Assembly: GCA_964645545.1 (NCBI GenBank)
Contig: CAZXZR010000002.1
Coordinates: forward strand, 1-51,864
Source: an uncultured Gammaproteobacteria bacterium
GTDB taxonomy: Bacteria; Patescibacteriota; Patescibacteriia; Patescibacteriales; UBA12465
DNA length: 51,864 nucleotides
Reading direction: 5' to 3'
In this document: positions 10,977-51,864 of the stretch, piece by piece
Layout: every line of letters begins with the position of its first letter
Numbering within the stretch: the stretch's first letter is position 1
Position numbers and translations under genes: made by a program
The notes under the pieces: generated by a model
What the model was told of the DNA's origin: nothing
The model's input: the letters and a program-made list of their open reading frames with translations, nothing else
Databases searched by the model: none

Positions 10977-11050
10977 GGGCATATAGCTCAGTTGGTTAGA
11001 GCACCGCTCTTATAAAGCGGGGGTCGATGGTTCAAGTCCATCTATGCCCA
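10977..11050 (+). tRNA. tRNA-Ile (anticodon UAU)
   Basis: Cloverleaf folded by hand: acceptor GGGCATA/TATGCCC, D arm GCTC-AGTTGGTTA-GAGC, anticodon stem CCGCT/AGCGG with loop CTTATAA, T arm GATGG-TTCAAGT-CCATC, discriminator A. No encoded CCA. Confidence 0.85.
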
Positions 11051-11066
11051 CGGACAATTTAATATC

Positions 11067-42547: not shown

Positions 42548-44009
42548 AAGTCGGGCTGGCGCCTTTTTTCTGGCGCTTAAAAATAAGACTGAGGTCTTCC
42601 GCACCCAGGCCGCCGAAGAGCCAGAGGCCGCCGAAATATACCAGGGCGGCGATAAGGAGGACGGCGATCAAACCGAGAATGTTGGTTTGGAAGCGTTGGG
42701 GCGAAAAATACAGGCAGGCGCCCATCAGCAGGCCGGCCGCCAAAGCCCGCCCGCTCATTTTCAGCTTCGGTCGGAAGCGCCCGTATTTGTAAACGCAATA
42801 GGCGGCGAAGGCGGCGATCAGGACCTCGCTGTAAATGGTGACGCCGGCGGCACCGAAGACGGAGAAACGGGGGATGAGCCAGAGGTAGCCGATCAGGGAA
42901 CTTAAGCCGGTAAAGACGTAGAAGCGGATCATCTTTCGCTGTTTGTCCAAAGCGATGACGGCATGGGAGAACATCGTGCCCAGAAAAATGGCGGCGACGG
43001 CGAAAATCAGGATTTGCAGGATCGCGCCGGAAGGGGCGAAGTCGTCGCCGGCAACGAAGACCATCAACGATTTGCCGACGAATTGGGCGCCGATGACCAA
43101 GGGAATAGCCAAGGCGGCCATGAAGTCAAAGGATTTTTGCAAGGCGCGCCTGAAATATTCGTGCTCGTTATCCAGCCAGGCGGCCGTCAAAATAGGCAGG
43201 ACCAGGCCGGCGAACATGAAGGGCAGGGTGGCCAGGACATCAATGACGCGGTAGGCGGCCCCGTAGAGGCCGACGTCGGCCGGACTCTTGAAAAAGGAGA
43301 GCAGGAGCGTGTCGGCGCGCAGGTAAATCAGGTTCAAGACGATGGTCACGGCCAGAGGCCAGGATTTGGTCACGATTTTTTTCCATAAGCCGAAGTCAAA
43401 GGCCGGCCGGATAAAGGCATATTTGAAAGCCAGGAAGTAATGGAGCAGAAAGTTGGCGGCGCCGGCGGCGACCGTGGTGATCAAAACGCCGTTCAGGCCG
43501 GCGCCGGATTTTTCCGAAAAAATGATGCCGGCGATGAGAACCAAGCGGCTGAAGACTTCGGCCGCGGCATCGCGGTTCATGCTCAATTTTTTTTGGAAGA
43601 GGCCGACGATGATCTGGTTCAGGGCCGGGAAAATGAAGGCCGCCGCCGCCAGCAGGATGCCGGCTTTGACGGTCGCGCCATAAGGCGAAAAGATGGCGAA
43701 GAGGGGCGCCAGGGCAAGGAAGAAAAGGACGGAAAGCAAACGCAGGCCGAAAAGGTTATTCAAAATGTGGCGCTCTTCTTCGGGCTCGCGCCGGCCGGCG
43801 ATCATTTGCGCCGTCACCAGGGTCAGGCCGAGGTCGGCGATGACGGCGAAGAAGGTCAGGAAAGTGATGACGGTGGTGTATTCGCCGAAACCGGCCTGGC
43901 CGAGATAGCGGGTGATAAGGGCGATAGAAAAAAGCCCCAGTATCGTGGAGATGATCTTACTGATTATTTGTACCAGGGTATTTTTGGCGATTCTGGCGGC
44001 CAGGCTCAT
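42525..44009 (-). CDS. MOP-superfamily flippase (Wzx/polysaccharide-biosynthesis or MurJ-like)
   Basis: 494 aa with about 12-14 TM segments. The N-terminus MSLAARIAKNTLVQIISKIISTILG is typical of oligosaccharide flippases. Confidence 0.8.
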   Translation of the reverse strand: MSLAARIAKNTLVQIISKIISTILGLFSIALITRYLGQAGFGEYTTVITFLTFFAVIADLGLTLVTAQMIAGRREPEEERHILNNLFGLRLLSVLFFLALAPLFAIFSPYGATVKAGILLAAAAFIFPALNQIIVGLFQKKLSMNRDAAAEVFSRLVLIAGIIFSEKSGAGLNGVLITTVAAGAANFLLHYFLAFKYAFIRPAFDFGLWKKIVTKSWPLAVTIVLNLIYLRADTLLLSFFKSPADVGLYGAAYRVIDVLATLPFMFAGLVLPILTAAWLDNEHEYFRRALQKSFDFMAALAIPLVIGAQFVGKSLMVFVAGDDFAPSGAILQILIFAVAAIFLGTMFSHAVIALDKQRKMIRFYVFTGLSSLIGYLWLIPRFSVFGAAGVTIYSEVLIAAFAAYCVYKYGRFRPKLKMSGRALAAGLLMGACLYFSPQRFQTNILGLIAVLLIAALVYFGGLWLFGGLGAEDLSLIFKRQKKGASPTYDPTGKF

Positions 44010-44080
44010 TTTTTCCTTGTTTTTTTAGGCGAATTTTTATATAATGAGATTGTCCTTATAATTATATCATATTTATATCT

Positions 44081-44509
44081 ATGACCAGAAAGCGCATTTT
44101 TTCTTGGTTTTTCGTGTCTCTTCTTGTCTTATGGGAAGCGGCCGTCTTTACGCTGCCGGTTCAGCCGGTTTCAGCCGACGAAACCCTATTCAACAGCCAG
44201 ACGGGCATGGCGGAATTGGGCACGGTTTACGGCCATACCAAGACGGATATCAGGGTAATCATCGGCAATATCATTACCATCGCCCTGGGCTTCTTAGCCT
44301 TGTTATTTCTGGTTCTGACCCTCATCGCCGGCTTCCAATACATGACTTCGGGCGGCAACGAGGAAAAAACCCGGACGGCCAGGAAACATTTGACCAATGC
44401 CCTTATCGGCCTGGTCATCGTCTTAATGGCCTGGGCGATCACCCGCTTCATTTTGCGCCGCCTGGCCGCGGCTATCAATAACAACGTGGACCTGTTGTAT
44501 CCATATTGA
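44081..44509 (+). CDS. TrbC/VirB2-like (T4SS-pilin family) small membrane protein
   Basis: 142 aa. Signal peptide, then two TM helices flanking a short loop: LIAGFQYMTSGGNEEKTRTARKHLTNALIGLVIVLMAWAI. The family call is from recollection. Confidence 0.55.
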   Translation: MTRKRIFSWFFVSLLVLWEAAVFTLPVQPVSADETLFNSQTGMAELGTVYGHTKTDIRVIIGNIITIALGFLALLFLVLTLIAGFQYMTSGGNEEKTRTARKHLTNALIGLVIVLMAWAITRFILRRLAAAINNNVDLLYPY

Positions 44510-44534
44510 TTTCCCGGCGGTCCGCCAGTTTCGG

Positions 44535-44562
44535 TTGACAAAATTACGCCCAGTGTTATAAT
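44535..44562 (+). promoter_or_regulatory. Near-consensus sigma70 promoter for nusA
   Basis: TTGACA (44535-44540), 16-nt spacer ending in TGt, then TATAAT (44557-44562). Confidence 0.55.
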
Positions 44563-44628
44563 GGAAAAAGAAAGCTAGTTGTGAAGACAATTAGCTTTTT
44601 CTCTATCAGCTATTTTAAGCCTAAAAAT

Positions 44629-46251
44629 ATGTCGGAAATAACCAACGCCATCAAACAGCTTTGCGAAGAAAAGAATCTTGATTTCGCTTCGGTCACGAGC
44701 GCCATCGAATTGGCCTTGGCGGCCGCCTACCGCAAGGATTATGGCGAGCGTAACCAGAACATTCGCGTCAAATTCGATCCCCAGACCGGCGGCAGCGAAA
44801 TTTTTGACGTGAAAACGGTGGTGGAAGACTTGCCCGAAGAGGAAGAAGCGGAAATGCTAAAAAATTTATATAACCCACCGGCGGAAACGAAAAAGGAAGA
44901 ATTCAAAGAAGAATTTGCGGAAACACGGGGGGCGAAAGCGTCCGCGAGCGCGGCGGAAGAGAAGGCCGTGCCTGGCGAAGGGGTCGGCGGAGCTCCGGCC
45001 GGCGCGGAAGCGGGCGAAGAAAAAAAGAAATTCAATCCCAAGTCGGACATCCAATTGAAAGAAGCCCTGATCTTGAAGCATGACGCCAAAATCGGGGAAG
45101 AAATCATTACCGAACTGCCCTTGCCGGAAAGCTACGGCCGCATGGCGGCCCAGACCGCCAAGCAGGTCATCATCCAGAAGTTGAGAGAAATGGAACGCGA
45201 CATGATTTTCGGGGAATTCAAAGGCAAGGAAAAGGAAGTCGTTTCCGGCGTCGTCCAGCGCCGCGAAGGCCGCCTGGTTTTCGTGGATCTGGGTAAGGCC
45301 ATAGGCCTTTTGCCTTCGGAAGAGCAGATCTATAACGAACGCTACGAGGCGGGCGAGCGCCTGAAAGTCTTCATTAAGGAAGTGCGCGAAGGCCACAAGG
45401 GTCCGGAAATAATCCTGTCGCGCCGCAGCGAGGAAATTTTGCGCAAGGTCTTTTATTTGGAAATTCCCGAAATCGCCAACGGTTTGGTGGAAATCAGGGC
45501 GGTGGCCAGAGAAGCCGGGTCGCGCTCCAAGGTGGCGATTTGGACAGACGCGGAAAACGTCGATCCGGTCGGTTCCTGCGTCGGCCAGCGCGGCTCGCGT
45601 ATCCAGATGATCATCAGCGAATTGGGCGGGGAGAAGATAGACATTATAGAATATAATGACGATCCGGAAAGATTCATCGCCAACGCCCTGGCGCCGGCGA
45701 AAATCATGGGCCTGGAACTGGACGAAAAGGAGCATAAGGCGACTGTCAGGGTCTCGCCGGACAAGCTGTCCTTGGCCATAGGCAAGAACGGCCAGAACGT
45801 CCGTTTGGCCGCCCGTCTGACCGACTGGAAAATAGACATCGTGGAAGCCTCCGAAGACGGGGCGAAGAAAGTGACTGGAAGCGAGGAAAGCGAAGAGCCG
45901 ATTGGCGAAGCTAAGGCGGGGGAGGCGGTGCTTAAAAAGGAAGCCGGTGAGGGAGTCGGTGAAGAAACGACTGAAAAGTCGGCCGCCAAAGAGGAAAAAG
46001 TCGCCGCCGAGGAAAAGCCGAAGAAAACAAAAACGAATGCTAAAGTGGAGATCATGGAAATAAGCGCCGAAGAAGCGAAAAAGATAGTCAATGCCTTTAA
46101 GAATAAAGAAAGTTTGGAGGGCGAAAACGGCCGCGGGAAAAGCCAAAAAATCACGCTCGGCAAAGGCATCGCCACGATCGAGTGGGAAAACGGCGAACTT
46201 GAGAAACATCGCCATGAATCTTTCTATAAGAATTTAATTAATAAAAAATAA
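44629..46251 (+). CDS. nusA: Transcription termination/antitermination factor NusA with an acidic insertion and a C-terminal extension
   Basis: S1 domain ([19 protein letters not shown]) and KH1/KH2 domains ([29 protein letters not shown]). The ATG at 44629 ([11 protein letters not shown]) is preferred over the GTG at 44581. Confidence 0.9.
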
Positions 46252-46262
46252 AATCACGATTT

Positions 46263-48263
46263 ATGCTGACCCATCTCTTTATTTTGGGGAGCGCCTTGGT
46301 CGCCGTCATTTACGGCGCCATTGTCATCGTTTCCATTTTGCGCTTGCCGGCCGGCAATGAGAAAATGGCCGCCATTAGCAAAGCCATACAAGCCGGCGCT
46401 AAGGCCTTCTTGAACCGCCAGTACAAGACCGTGGCGGTGGTGGCCCTGGTTTTGTTCGTCATTATCGGCTTAGTGCCGACCTTGGGCTGGCTGACCGCGG
46501 CCGCCTTCCTGTTCGGCGCAATTTTTTCCGCATTGACCGGCTATATCGGCATGTTCGTCAGCGTGCGCGCCAACGTGCGCACGACAGAAGCTGCCCGCCA
46601 GGGCTTGGGCAAGGCTTTGGGCGTAGCTGTTAGGGGCGGCAGCGTCACCGGCATGCTGGTTATCGGCTTGGCTCTCTTGGGCACGGCCGGTTTCTATTTC
46701 CTGACCCATGACTTGCACGCTTTAATAGGTTTCGGTTTCGGCGGATCACTTATTTCCATATTCGCCCGTTTGGGCGGCGGCATATATACCAAGGCCGCCG
46801 ACGTGGGCGCGGACCTGGTCGGCAAGGTTGAGTCCAATATTCCGGAAGACGACCCGCGCAATCCGGCCGTCATCGCCGATAACGTCGGCGATAATGTCGG
46901 CGATTGCTCCGGCATGGCCGCTGACCTGTTTGAAACTTACGCCGTGACTTCCATCGCGGCCATGGTCTTGGGTTCGCTGACTTTTTCTGCTGATCCGAAA
47001 ATCATAATCTACCCGCTTGTCTTGGGAGCCATTTCCATTATCGCTTCCATCATCGGCATTTTCTTCATCCGTTTGGGCAAAAAGAAAATGATCATGCGGG
47101 CTTTGTATAAAGGCTTGATAGCGGCCGGCGTTTTATCCGCCATTGCTTTTTATTTCGTTACCAGGAATTTAATCGCCGATCCGGCCGTGAGTTTGAAAAT
47201 ATTTTTGGCGAGCCTGATCGGCTTGGCCGTGACCGGCCTTCTGGTCGTGATTACCGAATACTATACTTCCACCAAATACGGGCCGGTAAAATCCATTGCC
47301 GAAGCGTCCAAGACCGGGCATGGCACGAATGTCATCGCCGGCTTGGCGGTTTCCATGAAATCGACCGCCTTGCCGATTATCGTGATTGTGCTGGCGATTT
47401 TAGGCGCATATGCCTTAGCCGGCCTGTATGGCATCGCCGTGGCCGCCATGGCCATGTTGTCTATGGCCGGCATCATCGTGACCATAGATGCTTACGGCCC
47501 GATTACCGATAATGCCGGCGGCATCGCGGAAATGGCCGAATTGGGAGAAGACGTGCGCAACGTTACCGATCCCTTGGACGCGGTCGGCAACACGACCAAG
47601 GCTGTGACCAAAGGCTATGCCATCGGTTCGGCCGCCCTGGCCGCCTTGGTCCTGTTCGCTGATTTCACTTTTAAGATTTCTGCTGGCGGCGGCACGGTGC
47701 AGTTCTTGATCAATAACCCTTACGTATTAAGCGGTCTGTTCATCGGCGGGCTATTGCCTTTCTATTTCGGCGCCCTGGCCATGAAAGCGGTCGGCCGCGC
47801 GGCCGGCTCGGTCGTGGAAGACGTGCGCGCGCAGTTCAAGGAAAAGGCCGGCATCATGAGCGGCGCGGAAAAACCGGATTATGGGCGCACCGTGGACATC
47901 GTCACCAAGGCGGCTTTGAAAGAAATGGTCGTGCCGGCCCTGATTCCGGTAGTCGTGCCCATCGTCGTCGGTTTCGCCTTCATGAGCCACGGCCTGGAAG
48001 CCCTCGGCGGCTTATTGGTCGGCTCCATCATTACCGGCATTTTCGTGGCCGTGTCCATGACGTCGGGCGGCGGCGCTTGGGACAATGCCAAGAAATATAT
48101 TGAAGCCGGCAACTTCGGCGGCAAGGGTTCGGACGCCCATAAGGCGGCAGTGACCGGCGACACGGTCGGCGATCCCTATAAGGATACGGCCGGCCCGGCG
48201 ATAAACCCGATGATCAAGGTCTTGAATATCGTGGCCTTATTGATCGTGGGATTGTTGCTGTAA
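46263..48263 (+). CDS. hppA: Membrane-integral H+-translocating pyrophosphatase, K+-independent type
   Basis: 666 aa, with [27 protein letters not shown] carries Lys at the position known to distinguish K+-independent from K+-dependent (Ala) enzymes. Confidence 0.95.
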
Positions 48264-48279
48264 AAATTAATGATAATTA

Positions 48280-48308
48280 AAAGCGCCCAGGTTAAATGGG
48301 CGCTTTTG
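48280..48308 (+). terminator. Intrinsic terminator of hppA
   Basis: 8-bp stem AGCGCCCA/TGGGCGCT (48282-48304) with a 7-nt loop, followed by a T-run. Confidence 0.6.
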
Positions 48309-48313
48309 TATTG

Positions 48314-48340
48314 AAAAACCCCGGATCCTTGGTCCGGGGC
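48314..48340 (-). terminator. Intrinsic terminator of the minus-strand orphan operon
   Basis: 7-bp stem CCCCGGA/TCCGGGG (48319-48339). On the minus strand it is followed by TTTTT. Confidence 0.55.
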
Positions 48341-48359: not shown

Positions 48360-50495
48360 CTATAGATTACCCTTAATCGTAACCTGCGCGCCCATCGTTT
48401 CCAGCCAGGTTTTCCAGAAATTGCTGGCGGCGCGGAAAGTCGCGTCGTCCTCAATATTTCTGGGGGCGTAAATGATATAAATCTGATAACCGCTTAATTT
48501 AGGCAGAGGCGCTTTTTTCAAGAAAGCCTCTTTAATTTTTTCCTGCTGTCTTTGATTATTCAAGTCCAGCCGGTAAAAACTAATATCAGAATTTTCTATC
48601 ATATCGGAAACGATGATGATGATTTTTATCGCCTCCGGATCGGCGTTCATGGTCTTGGCCGCTTCGGCAATGGGCAAATAGATGCTGGTTTTTTCCTCTC
48701 CTTGCGACGAGGTAAAAAACATTTTCCATTGTTCGGCCAGTTCCGTGGTGAACCGCGTCAGCTCCCTTTTTCTTAGGACAGCAGTTTCGTCTCGCAGCCT
48801 GGGCTTGAGCGAGATTTTCCTGGTTTTGTTTAGGGAAAAAGCGTTTATTTCATAGAAGGATATGCGGCCATAACCGCCCTTCATGAGTTCCAGGATGCCA
48901 TTTGGGTCAACCAAACTTTGCAATTTTTGGTTTTGCTCCGTTTGGTCGACCATGATTGCAATGTCATATTTCGGCTGGTCCGGAGTGCCGCAACGCGAAA
49001 GAAATAATGACGAGGCCAATAAAATCGACAAGATAAGCGATTTTACTGGCAAGCCCGCATCAATTTTTTTGTCTGTCCGGTTTTCCTCGGCGCCTAAATA
49101 AGGCTTAAACAATTCAGGAATGTCCAAGCTTGGTTCAGGGCCGAGCTCTTCGACGGGGAAGTATTCCATGAGTATTTGGCGCTGATAGACTAAATCCGCG
49201 CGGAATCTTTTCATCATGAAATCCAGGTAAATTTTTAAGTAATTTTCACTTTTCTTAAAAATTCTTTCCGCTTCTTCATAATCATTCCTCTTCTCTTCAA
49301 ATTTCTTGGCTTCGCTCGTATAATCCAGAGCTTTTATTTCCTGGTTAAGCTTATGGAGCTTGGTGGCGTTATCTTGCGCGATAGTGTCAAGATAAGTTTG
49401 GTTCACGCCATCCAGTTCATTTTCTTTAGAACGGATTTTGGCGTTCAAGTTGGTCACGATTTTGTAGAGATCTTCATAAGCTTTTCTTTTCTCCGTCGGG
49501 ATTTTGCTGGTCATTATCAGGGACCAGCCGAAACCGGCAATGAAAATGAAGAAGTTCAAAACCGCCATCATGGTTGGGCTGATGTTGGCCGTTCCCACCT
49601 CGGAAATGTAAAGGGAACGGAAATAGCCGGCGATGAAACTGACGCCGACCATAAGCAGGCAGATTACCGGCGCGACCAGCCAGTATGGCTTTTTCGGTTC
49701 GGATTTTTTTATGGAAGCGGCGCTGACATGCGCCAGCATCATAATGACAATGCCGAACATCAAAGCCATGACATAAGTAGCGGTTTTGCCTTCGCCGAAA
49801 AGTTGGAATACCGGATAGTTAACCGGCATTTCCGCGAGCGCCACCGCCGCCAAACCGATCGCATAAATGATTTTTCTCATGGCTGACGGCCGGTGCGGCA
49901 CGGTAACTTTCCACAAAGTATATGAGAGATTGGATAACTCATTATACTTGGTTTGGCGTTCGGCCTTCAACTCGCCCAACTCCGCGGCCAAGATTTTAAC
50001 AGTTTGGTCATGAAGTTCGGCATTGGCCCTTTTTTGCTCCTGATAGAATTGTTCCGTTTCCGGCCGGCCTAAAGGCGTCGTGTGCGATTCCAGGGCGGCT
50101 TTAGACTGGTTGAAATCATTATCTATTTCCGCCTTGTCCGGAGCGATGTCTTCGGCTGCCGCGTTAAGCATCTTGTCGTAGGCTTTGACCAAACCGGCTT
50201 CATCAGCCAGCTCTTGCTGGTATTTGGCTTCAATTCCAGCCAATACTTGGCTGCGTCTTTGTTGCTCTTGGCTATCGGTAGCAAACAGGGCTTTTTCATG
50301 CAAAGCATAATCACGGTAATCCGGATGTAAACTGATTTTCATGGTCCGGATTTTTTTAAGATCAGTCGAGATTTCTTCCAAGTGCGGATCAATCTCAATT
50401 TTTTTCTGGCTAAGGATGGTGCCGATATTCAAGCGCCCGTCAATTTTAGCCAGTAATTGATTTTTTTCTTCCATGGCATTAATTTTTGTGTCCAT
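48360..50495 (-). CDS. Unknown 711-aa membrane protein: coiled-coil, 4 TM, coiled-coil, internal signal/lipobox-like TM, vWA-like alpha/beta domain
   Basis: Long uninterrupted ORF with no family motif I recognise. Segment boundaries were read from the sequence: charged helical region 1-205; TM segments at about 209-230, 239-260, 271-292 and 308-328; charged helical region 335-465; KKIDAGLPVKSLILSILLASSLFLSRCG at 476-503; alpha/beta domain 510-711. Confidence 0.7.
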   Translation of the reverse strand: MDTKINAMEEKNQLLAKIDGRLNIGTILSQKKIEIDPHLEEISTDLKKIRTMKISLHPDYRDYALHEKALFATDSQEQQRRSQVLAGIEAKYQQELADEAGLVKAYDKMLNAAAEDIAPDKAEIDNDFNQSKAALESHTTPLGRPETEQFYQEQKRANAELHDQTVKILAAELGELKAERQTKYNELSNLSYTLWKVTVPHRPSAMRKIIYAIGLAAVALAEMPVNYPVFQLFGEGKTATYVMALMFGIVIMMLAHVSAASIKKSEPKKPYWLVAPVICLLMVGVSFIAGYFRSLYISEVGTANISPTMMAVLNFFIFIAGFGWSLIMTSKIPTEKRKAYEDLYKIVTNLNAKIRSKENELDGVNQTYLDTIAQDNATKLHKLNQEIKALDYTSEAKKFEEKRNDYEEAERIFKKSENYLKIYLDFMMKRFRADLVYQRQILMEYFPVEELGPEPSLDIPELFKPYLGAEENRTDKKIDAGLPVKSLILSILLASSLFLSRCGTPDQPKYDIAIMVDQTEQNQKLQSLVDPNGILELMKGGYGRISFYEINAFSLNKTRKISLKPRLRDETAVLRKRELTRFTTELAEQWKMFFTSSQGEEKTSIYLPIAEAAKTMNADPEAIKIIIIVSDMIENSDISFYRLDLNNQRQQEKIKEAFLKKAPLPKLSGYQIYIIYAPRNIEDDATFRAASNFWKTWLETMGAQVTIKGNL

Positions 50496-50552: not shown

Positions 50553-51737
50553 TCACATTGACTTAATGTTAAGCGACAAGAAGACGATAAATAAAGTATG
50601 GATTAACCCATTAACGCTCTTGTCGCTTTTGCCGAGAACGAATGACGGCTTCATGCTTATGCCCGTGATTTCGCTGGCCCAGAAAGAATCCCGGCGGTTC
50701 AGAATGTTGTTTTCCAGCGATGCCGCCAGACTTACGATCTTTTTGATGTCAGTTGAATCGCGCAAGCTATCTTTCAAGCCCAAGAATGCGCCCTTGATAC
50801 TTTTTAGTCGCCCGCCGTCCTTAATTTGATCAATCTCATTCTGGAAAGAATTATGCCAACCGAGCATCAGGTTATGCCGATCAAGCACTGTTTCGCAGTT
50901 AAAATGGTTCCAAACCAAATTAAAACTGCGCCTAATCCCCTCGGGAATTAGGGGGATGAGAGTAATAGCCGTGACATGGTCTATGCCGAGAAGGCCGGCA
51001 CGCTTGTTTTGCGTGCAGAAAGCGACCAGCGGATTGGGCAGGTCAAGCTTTTCTGAAATGGCCTCCGCTTGCATTAATATGCCCTTGGCGCTGGTCTTAT
51101 TGGCCAGGCCGGACAGAAGGCGTTCAACATCAATGGCCAAACCAGGTTGATCTCTCTGTATCACTTTTAAATTGGCTTCGGCAAATGTTCTCCAGGCATC
51201 CATGCCCAGGTGACGCTGATACATTTCCAGCGGGTTAAGGCCCTTCCATTTGATTGTGTCCAGAGGGCTGAAATCAAAGAAAGAATTTTCGATTTTTTCT
51301 TTGATAACACCATCAATCAGCTGAGGAATGGTCATTACAGAATCTAACTCCCCTTTAGGGCAGTTGAAGATTCTTAGCATTTTGTCATGGGAAACACCAC
51401 CTTCCAACGCAAACCTTTCAACTCTATCTTGGCCGACGTAGCCGAAGATAAATGATGAGTGGCGGCTGAAGTTAGTGAATACGCTGTAGCTTATTTCCAC
51501 GCTAGCCGCGTTTTCCGGCTGCTGGCAATAGAATTTGAAATTGCACCTCAAATGCTCCGGCTTAATTTCAATTTCCAATGCCTTTTGCGTGTACGGCAAT
51601 CTGATGAAATATTTTTTGCCGTTCAGGGTGAGAGCGAATTCCTTCTGATCAAGGACTCGCTGGACCTCCCTTTCCAAGGTCTCTTGGGTCAGATCGGTCT
51701 GAAAGATCCGATGCAACCCGCTAAATAGTTTTTCCAT
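50553..51737 (-). CDS. Unknown 394-aa protein, first gene of the orphan operon
   Basis: Uninterrupted ORF. GGAGG lies 9 nt upstream of the ATG at 51737. No recognisable motif. Short hydrophobic C-terminal tail GLIHTLFIVFLSLNI. Confidence 0.7.
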   Translation of the reverse strand: MEKLFSGLHRIFQTDLTQETLEREVQRVLDQKEFALTLNGKKYFIRLPYTQKALEIEIKPEHLRCNFKFYCQQPENAASVEISYSVFTNFSRHSSFIFGYVGQDRVERFALEGGVSHDKMLRIFNCPKGELDSVMTIPQLIDGVIKEKIENSFFDFSPLDTIKWKGLNPLEMYQRHLGMDAWRTFAEANLKVIQRDQPGLAIDVERLLSGLANKTSAKGILMQAEAISEKLDLPNPLVAFCTQNKRAGLLGIDHVTAITLIPLIPEGIRRSFNLVWNHFNCETVLDRHNLMLGWHNSFQNEIDQIKDGGRLKSIKGAFLGLKDSLRDSTDIKKIVSLAASLENNILNRRDSFWASEITGISMKPSFVLGKSDKSVNGLIHTLFIVFLSLNIKSM

Positions 51738-51845: not shown

Positions 51846-51864
51846 ATAAATTTTAGCATAATAT

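Follow-up and report, generated by a model that had tools for sequence, protein, structure and literature searches.

We analyzed a 51,864-nt stretch of DNA, hereafter the window, which spans positions 1 to 51,864 of contig CAZXZR010000002.1 (GenBank assembly GCA_964645545.1) from an uncultured bacterium assigned by GTDB to the Patescibacteriota, and focused on a 711-residue protein, P0001, encoded near its right-hand end. We propose, with a probability of about 0.6, that P0001 is a fused two-gene membrane module with a von Willebrand factor A (vWA)-like outer domain, that the module acts as an accessory of DNA mobilization, and that the copy in this host is orphaned. The first part of this proposal, namely that P0001 unites in one chain what is elsewhere a conserved, unnamed membrane module of two genes, is well supported by sequence comparison.

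A first-pass annotation of the window, made from the sequence alone, had described P0001 as a likely fusion of a cytoplasmic coiled-coil and four-helix membrane module with an exported vWA-like domain behind an internal lipoprotein-like signal. The open reading frame (ORF) was confirmed on the minus strand and occurs once in the host genome; its parts are listed in Table 1. Transmembrane (TM) segments, signal peptides and coiled coils were called by combining hydropathy with counts of charged residues, a home-made heptad score and homolog comparison. By the Kyte-Doolittle scale, hydrophobic segments lie at residues about 236–264, 269–298, 305–331 and 480–503, and TM1 (about 208–228) falls under the threshold, being detected only with a 17-residue window, with its peak at 209. 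The annotation had treated both cytoplasmic regions as coiled coils. The heptad test bore this out for residues 332–475 (maximum 0.72 versus 0.45 ± 0.11, with the observed fraction matched in 4 of 300 shuffles), and the signal of residues 1–205 stayed at the level of shuffled sequences (0.55 versus 0.51 ± 0.09; 300 shuffles, a crude test). Conservation of the N-terminal region is weak upstream of about residue 91, where the alignment with the nearest relative, P0003, begins.

Table 1 Features of P0001 and its surroundings (positions refer to the window).
Feature	Coordinates	Strand	Basis
P0001, whole ORF, 711 residues plus stop: N-half and C-domain fused	48360..50495	-	ORF translation
Residues 1–207, charged N-terminal region, inferred cytoplasmic	49875..50495	-	K/R ahead of TM1
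Residues 208–331, four-TM domain	49503..49874	-	Hydropathy and N-half alignment
Residues 332–475, cytoplasmic helical region with heptad (coiled-coil-like) signal	49071..49502	-	Heptad score; K+R-rich after TM4
Residues 476–503, fifth TM segment (TM5), degenerate lipobox L-S-R-C502 at its end	48987..49070	-	Hydropathy and homologs
Residues 504–711, extracytoplasmic vWA-like alpha/beta domain	48363..48986	-	Profile comparison, conservation, ESM Atlas
P0002, 394 residues, 57 nt upstream of the fusion, short hydrophobic tail	50553..51737	-	ORF list
Pair of terminator-like hairpins separating P0001 from the convergent H+-pyrophosphatase gene	48279..48339		Consensus scan; counts not above shuffles

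Both halves of P0001 belong to sizeable families that lack a model in Pfam, NCBIfam, PHROG and PADLOC. Against Pfam, P0001 itself gave only sub-threshold noise (ABC2_membrane_5, 22.3 bits with a cut-off of 25; SLATT_5, 16.3 bits with a cut-off of 29.5). An exhaustive HMMER search returned 600 cluster representatives at E ≤ 1e-3, including 119 at E ≤ 1e-10, and 150 matches were listed. Among these 150 listed matches, the C-terminal domain (C-domain) was present in 143, and most were stand-alone C-domains of 226–263 residues matching residues 485–711 of P0001. Their own residues 2–10 align with P0001 residues 485–495, such that their N-terminal signal peptide lines up with TM5. The same list included seven stand-alone N-terminal halves (N-halves; 271–420 residues) and 20 fusions, all with a 4+1 TM layout. 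The nearest relative, P0003, is a fused protein of 668 residues with 38% identity to P0001, and the fused relatives P0003, P0004 and P0005 share 31–41% identity with P0001 over its length. A word-indexed homolog search had returned P0003 as the sole relative, and a search for shorter proteins had returned no stand-alone C-domains; because HMMER later yielded hundreds, we attribute this negative to limited sensitivity.

The annotation's suspicion of a fusion was substantiated by the genomic arrangement of the split relatives. We scanned contigs from one genome per species with 33 stand-alone C-domain queries and obtained 48 loci, nearly all from Bacteroidota metagenome-assembled genomes (MAGs), with two from bins labeled Minisyncoccia and Wolfebacteria; one of the split-pair loci, L061, belongs to Mucilaginibacter rivuli. 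With a hidden Markov model of the N-half, 45 of the 48 loci showed an N-half ORF as the immediate upstream neighbor of the C-domain gene, in the same orientation; the remaining three carry no DNA on that side. The distance from the stop of the N-half to the start of the C-domain was −4 nt in 21 of 44 loci, and the genes of the nearest split pair, P0008 and P0010 (locus L068 on a 46-kb metagenome contig), overlap by 8 nt. The two halves thus exist in large numbers as separate, adjacent and translationally coupled genes. In a tree of 139 C-domain sequences, built with FastTree only, all 20 fused forms fell inside one 48-row clade with a support of 99. On this tree, at least four changes between the fused and split states are forced by well-supported branches, and nine is the most parsimonious number, which indicates that the two forms interconvert within the family.

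Because the split genes overlap by 4–8 nt, a single-base sequencing or assembly error could in principle join them in one frame. Such an artefact is highly improbable as the source of P0001: the 20 fused forms among the 150 listed matches come from independent sources, one fused form lies on a 1.18-Mb Bacteroidota contig (L108), and the exact P0001 protein is on record in five contigs. Moreover, the linker before TM5 in P0001 has no in-frame ATG or GTG left and has thus diverged since the fusion.

We then considered the topology of the protein. Over 49 aligned N-halves, K and R residues averaged 0.14, 3.51 and 1.47 in loops 1, 2 and 3, respectively, and 3.98 after TM4. Because this pattern is positive-inside, it assigns a cytoplasmic location to both the N-terminus and the middle helical region, and an outside location to the C-domain, carried across by TM5, in agreement with the orientation proposed for the cytoplasmic regions and the last ~210 residues in the first-pass annotation. 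Export of the C-domain is further suggested by the stand-alone relatives, which carry the corresponding segment as an N-terminal signal peptide or lipobox. The best-conserved residues of the N-half are E222, N226, F230 and G234 at the outer end of TM1 and in loop 1, the invariant R293 at the outer end of TM3, and N314 and F318 in TM4; each of these sits close to, or at, the outer face, and a further conserved residue, H256, lies within TM2. ESM Atlas queried with the N-half returned only unnamed clusters, with structural rows at a TM-score of at most 0.26 by query; rows for DUF2637 and SpdB fell under the tool's bar and were not used.

The fifth hydrophobic segment is the seam between the two halves. 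Among the matches listed, a hydrophobic segment precedes the C-domain in 20/20 fused and 111/117 stand-alone relatives, and a Cys follows it in 19 of the 20 fused ones, so the signal-like segment that the annotation had singled out is conserved, and among the fused forms so is its Cys. A loose lipobox is found in 15/20 fused and 62/117 stand-alone relatives and a strict one in 4/20 and 21/117, respectively; about a third of the stand-alone relatives listed have a plain hydrophobic anchor with no Cys at that place. Lipoprotein signals usually end in the pattern [LVI][ASTVI][GAS]C. The segment and Cys502 of P0001 were located correctly in the annotation, mid-protein; the box reads L-S-R-C502, with Arg at position −1, departs from this pattern and follows 475 residues. 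The box of P0003 is FVEC, and the small −1 residue is lost in both proteins. Since stand-alone C-domains begin with their own signal and the two genes adjoin, the reading of the internal signal in P0001 as a signal peptide that once belonged to the downstream gene is well supported by these comparisons. The host genome encodes both Lgt (PF01790, 227.8 bits) and LspA (PF01252, 92.4 bits) on contig C5. In comparison with the lipoproteins that these enzymes process, the stand-alone relatives listed share an N-terminal signal with a lipobox-like Cys; P0001 differs in that its signal follows four TM helices as well as the long N-terminal stretch. Because its lipobox is degenerate, TM5 of P0001 probably stays in place as an uncleaved anchor. 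We also considered an internal start that would make a separate lipoprotein, and rejected it on the lack of an in-frame ATG or GTG before TM5; the sole candidate, a TTG at L482, has no well-placed Shine-Dalgarno sequence. Repeated fusion has placed a lipoprotein signal inside a polytopic protein, a natural test case for the action of Lgt and LspA on internal signals, and a limited full-text literature search with phrases for internal lipoprotein signals and their cleavage returned no paper.

The C-domain carries a set of highly conserved positions. D517 is invariant in 117 C-domain sequences, and T519, F582, the Ser/Thr column at T603, S630, D631, E634, Y641 and P678 are conserved in at least 90% of them; judged from this alignment, the conserved features exceed chance. 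The corresponding motifs of P0001 are DIAIMVDQTE (residues 511–520), TSIYLPIAEA (603–612), KIIIIVSDMIENS (624–636) and YQIYIIYAP (670–678). The annotation had read a degenerate arrangement in them, of the form DxTx...T...D, that resembles a metal-ion-dependent adhesion site (MIDAS). Its sites proved highly conserved, and T603, D631 and Cys502 were numbered correctly; the first two residues, given as D516 and T518, are D517 and T519. P0001 thus has four of the five MIDAS-like positions (D517-Q-T519-E-Q521, T603 and D631). Among the relatives listed, the first motif is DxTxS in 37/137 and DxSxS in 4/137, with a variable fifth position otherwise.

Comparison of profiles placed the domain near the vWA fold. 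Aligned by hhalign with a reference of nine VWA_2 proteins from genomes of the host's phylum, the C-domain alignment scored 35.8 (E 8.3e-5, probability 60.6%). Column-shuffled versions scored at most 17.2 (60 shuffles), the reversed alignment 17.1, and alignments with other folds 14.5 (12 HAD_2 proteins) and 16.3 (12 Response_reg proteins). The alignment pairs SSxY-P with the segment of the MIDAS Thr and SDxxEN with that of the MIDAS Asp, and a greedy alignment sets DxT[DE] against DxSGS. In ESM Atlas, the model of residues 504–711 matched, at a TM-score of 0.83, a cluster with VWA_2 in 44% of its members, and a feature search ranked a vWA-named cluster second (0.93), with VWA_2 in 10% of that cluster's members; the whole-protein model was poor (predicted TM-score 0.32, predicted local distance difference test score 0.60). 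No vWA match was found in Pfam for P0001, nor for any of the 117 C-domain relatives at E ≤ 0.01, and the best VWA_2 match among the relatives, that of P0135, reached 14.6 bits against a cut-off of 27. Since conservation, profile comparison and ESM Atlas agree, we consider, with moderate support, that the C-domain is probably a divergent vWA-like domain outside the Pfam vWA families. The vWA-like reading of the first-pass annotation was therefore supported, as a resemblance that is specific against controls and reaches no Pfam VWA model at threshold.

Relative to established vWA and MIDAS domains (VWA_2 PF13519, VWA PF00092 and integrin I-domains), the C-domain shares both motif order and spacing: D-x-[ST] closes a beta strand, a Ser/Thr comes about 85 residues on, and [ST]-D terminates a subsequent hydrophobic strand. 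It is precisely the T and D segments that the profile-profile alignment matches, and the domain is predicted to be extracytoplasmic like many bacterial vWA proteins. It differs in a family consensus of D-x-T-[DE]-x rather than D-x-S-x-S, and in an additional conserved E634-N635 after the Asp, together with Y641 and P678. Because four of the five MIDAS positions are kept, the C-domain may bind a ligand on the outside, possibly via a metal ion.

The genomic neighborhoods of the split relatives link the pair to DNA transfer, a connection absent from the first-pass annotation. The typical order is integrase, one or two small genes, N-half, C-domain, type IV coupling protein (T4CP), a gene of ~170 codons, relaxase and ArdC; examples among loci L014–L061, from environmental Bacteroidota MAGs, are L015:1966-9627 and L031:2698-10687. 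Clustering of neighbors showed a T4CP after the C-domain gene in 46 of the 46 loci with downstream DNA; across the scan loci, relaxase was a neighbor 39 times, the ~170-residue protein 29 times, ArdC 15 times and integrase 8 times. By Pfam, the T4CP belongs to T4SS-DNA_transf (PF02534, E 8.5e-52) and the relaxase is of the MobA/VirD2 type (PF03432, E 6.1e-13). The ArdC neighbor combines ArdcN with a zincin peptidase domain, and the recombinase is of the phage-integrase family (tyrosine recombinases). The VirD4-type T4CP measures about 480 residues and the relaxase about 280, and the accessory protein of ~170 residues matches no family. In the loci examined, small integrative elements of environmental Bacteroidota thus constantly have the pair next to their coupling protein and relaxase. 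A further sample of 400 genomes from the Bacteroidota phylum contributed four more carriers, of which we examined three (L108, L109 and L110): two combine the split pair with a T4CP, the accessory gene and a relaxase, and the third (L108:9481-11550, minus strand) encodes a fused 689-residue form on a 1.18-Mb contig of a 5.6-Mb Bacteroidota genome, after which come, in the same orientation, four small ORFs and then the transfer genes in an altered order (accessory gene, relaxase, T4CP). A tblastn search of plasmids with one N-half and the C-domain of P0001 returned no match.

Several genomes carry more than one copy. The MAG labeled Chryseobacterium that contains L043 (G402) holds five C-domain copies (L098, L103, L105, L106 and L107), and other MAGs have two loci each (L026/L032, L039/L051 and L049/L053). 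Separately, L031:2436-11063, on a 165-kb contig of a Minisyncoccia-labeled bin, and L024:1735-10034, from a Bacteroidia bin, are 84–86.5% identical in DNA over 8.3 kb, a likeness due either to a binning error or to recent inter-phylum transfer.

Like the mobilization modules of integrative and mobilizable elements (IMEs), which comprise a relaxase, an accessory protein and a VirD4-type T4CP, the loci of the relatives combine a T4CP and a relaxase, here in one operon-like block with both halves. In the passages of a 2017 IME review that deal with Bacteroidetes, the few known IMEs of this group encode a relaxase but no coupling protein (PMC5704250). The Bacteroidota elements described here differ from the IMEs covered in those passages in having a coupling protein of their own together with the N-half/C-domain pair. 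The P0001 gene, unlike its relatives, adjoins no mobilization gene in the window, neither a coupling protein nor a relaxase. Because L068, from the lineage closest to P0001, is also without such genes within 8 kb, we limit the link to DNA transfer to the Bacteroidota-type elements. One could imagine a coupling protein without TM segments that needs the N-half as its anchor; the N-terminal hydrophobicity of the T4CPs is ambiguous in this respect (median 1.59, with 18 of 39 above 1.6), and we mention this as a possibility only.

We next turned to the way in which P0001 came to its present place in its host, whose genome assembly comprises 38 contigs with a total of 715 kb. Searches of 18 congeneric species and of 12 genomes from the same order did not find the gene, and among 400 further genomes of the phylum they gave only three weak matches (E 1.4e-4 to 7.2e-4). 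One of these, a 626-residue ORF (L065), reads by eye as DnaX, the tau/gamma subunit of DNA polymerase III, and was taken as spurious; this reading applies to L065 only and not to the weak matches L066 and L067. Downstream, P0001 faces the convergent H+-pyrophosphatase gene. Three congeners keep the order flippase, small membrane protein, NusA and pyrophosphatase, at 46–87% protein identity, and after the pyrophosphatase gene they carry trigger factor and SmpB; synteny between the window and these congeners extends through the pyrophosphatase gene and stops there. The host's own trigger factor, SmpB and transfer-messenger RNA (tmRNA) genes open another contig, C35, 655 nt from its end, where a 168-residue membrane ORF precedes them and two tRNAs come next (C35:1-3133, L114). 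Given the gene order of the congeners, C35 probably adjoins the end of the window at 51864, and because these genes and the tmRNA lie on C35, P0001 and P0002 fill the break in synteny. P0002 gave no relatives in a search of 5.8 billion proteins and matched no family in four libraries; we regard it as a probable part of the acquired segment that contains P0001. The GC content is 0.456 for the P0001 gene and 0.462 for P0002, compared with 0.534 for the neighboring positions 44000–48300. The split relatives P0008 and P0010 likewise lie beside SmpB and tmRNA. Integration at a tRNA was considered and rejected, as no tRNA lies near P0001, and so was integration at the 3′ end of the tmRNA, as the tmRNA genes of C35 and L068 point away.

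Absence from the 18 congeners, the position at a synteny break and a host without a relaxase or a clear coupling protein together argue that P0001 is probably an acquired, orphaned copy that stands apart from transfer genes. The acquisition looks recent, and the gene would then mark a recent gain in a very small genome, in which one integrase was found, on another contig. Because the frame is intact and all family-invariant residues are kept, P0001 may still function in this host.

We propose the following model. The product of the first gene would comprise a cytoplasmic N-terminal region, four TM helices with conserved polar residues at the outer face, and a cytoplasmic helical tail. The product of the second would be an exported vWA-like domain that a lipoprotein signal or signal anchor tethers outside the cytoplasmic membrane. 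A change of frame at the junction, where the genes normally overlap by 4 nt, would have fused them and turned the old signal peptide into TM5, which would keep its N-in/C-out orientation and leave the vWA-like domain outside. The conserved outer loops of the four-TM domain are candidate partners of that domain. The annotation had further suggested coupling across the membrane between the outer domain and the cytoplasmic regions, which may likewise occur. Because the module is fixed in small elements that have their own coupling protein and relaxase, its most likely role in Bacteroidota would be that of an envelope-spanning accessory of DNA mobilization. It might, for example, provide a docking site for the coupling protein, either at the membrane or at the secretion machine of a helper. 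A membrane pair with a MIDAS-like outer domain could thereby link the coupling protein of a mobilizable element to the envelope or to helper secretion machinery.

A bolder version, which we regard as speculative, assumes that fused precursors with a good lipobox after TM5 (for instance P0005, P0009, P0014 and the L108 form), which stem from at least four independent fusion or fission events, are lipidated by Lgt and cut within the membrane by LspA in the manner of a polyprotein, which would give a five-TM subunit and a lipoprotein. The pair would then form a third envelope-spanning core component of those Bacteroidota mobilizable elements that encode a coupling protein, and P0001, with its LSRC, would be a variant without the cut.

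Several points weigh against the proposal that P0001 is a fused mobilization module left behind in this host. The host genome, 93.5% complete, gave no relaxase match, and its T4CP-like matches were sub-threshold only (16.6 bits, in an 858-residue ORF); the contig ends 127 nt past P0002. Within 8 kb of the nearest split relatives, at L068, neither a T4CP nor a relaxase was found, and neither half reaches threshold in the four family libraries. As for the outer domain, the second Ser of the MIDAS is missing in P0001 (D-Q-T-E-Q) at a position that the family does not conserve, the hhalign probability is just 60.6% with a high-confidence part of 42 columns, and the C-domain profile found nothing better than E 0.11 among PDB sequences. 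Metal binding by the C-domain, contact between the two halves and contact of either half with the coupling protein are at most putative.

Other explanations of the pair can be weighed against the same data. F TraS and TraT, RP4 TrbK and ICEBs1 YddJ are exclusion proteins of conjugation systems, and the pair could likewise be an entry or surface exclusion module that marks the carrier cell and blocks a second transfer. The combination of a lipoprotein or anchored protein with an inner-membrane protein encoded beside transfer genes resembles these systems, and exclusion genes are mentioned on some mobilizable islands in sections of the IME review (PMC5704250). The pair is much larger than the named exclusion proteins, has a vWA-like domain and occurs in several copies in one genome. 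Five coexisting C-domain copies in G402, along with MAGs that hold two loci, would be unexpected unless specificities differ, and this coexistence makes exclusion, which we hold to be unlikely, somewhat disfavored. Its size points the same way: the known conjugation exclusion proteins are small. The pair might also be a membrane-acting effector of conflict or defense, of the abortive-infection type, carried as mobile cargo, with the outer domain as sensor and the TM bundle as effector. Such a role would suit integrase-bearing elements in which the pair lies near the anti-restriction gene ArdC, and the weak SLATT_5 match (E 0.0063, 16.3 bits) recalls pore-forming effectors, but that match is far under its cut-off and covers residues 374–430, in the helical region and outside the TM helices, and PADLOC gave no match. 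The slot between the small genes and the T4CP is fixed in 46 loci at 24–49% identity, so the pair resembles a core gene rather than swappable cargo, and we rank the defense reading below exclusion.

A different question is whether P0001 is a decaying relic, left over from a lost mobilizable element and useless to its host. The missing relaxase and clear T4CP would fit this, as would the absence of the gene from 30 relatives (18 congeners and 12 genomes of the same order), the degenerate lipobox and an orphan neighbor, P0002, at the contig end. Decay is nevertheless hard to reconcile with an intact frame of 711 codons in which the near-invariant residues are all kept (E222, N226, F230, H256, R293, D517, T519, T603, S630, D631, E634, Y641 and P678). 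Furthermore, since P0003, P0004 and P0005 are 31–41% identical to P0001 along its length, the fused form itself appears to have been under selection. We therefore consider a relic about as improbable as exclusion, and favor the reading of P0001 as an orphaned but possibly functional copy of a fused mobilization module.

Two further features of the window were recorded. At 10977–11051 on the plus strand, ARAGORN identified a tRNA-Ile with the anticodon TAT, an uncommon isoacceptor in bacteria, next to a tRNA-Val(GAC). The NusA ORF at 44581–46251, also on the plus strand, spans 556 residues from a GTG, compared with 456–466 residues for the matching ORFs of three congeners; either its start was called too early or the protein is extended.

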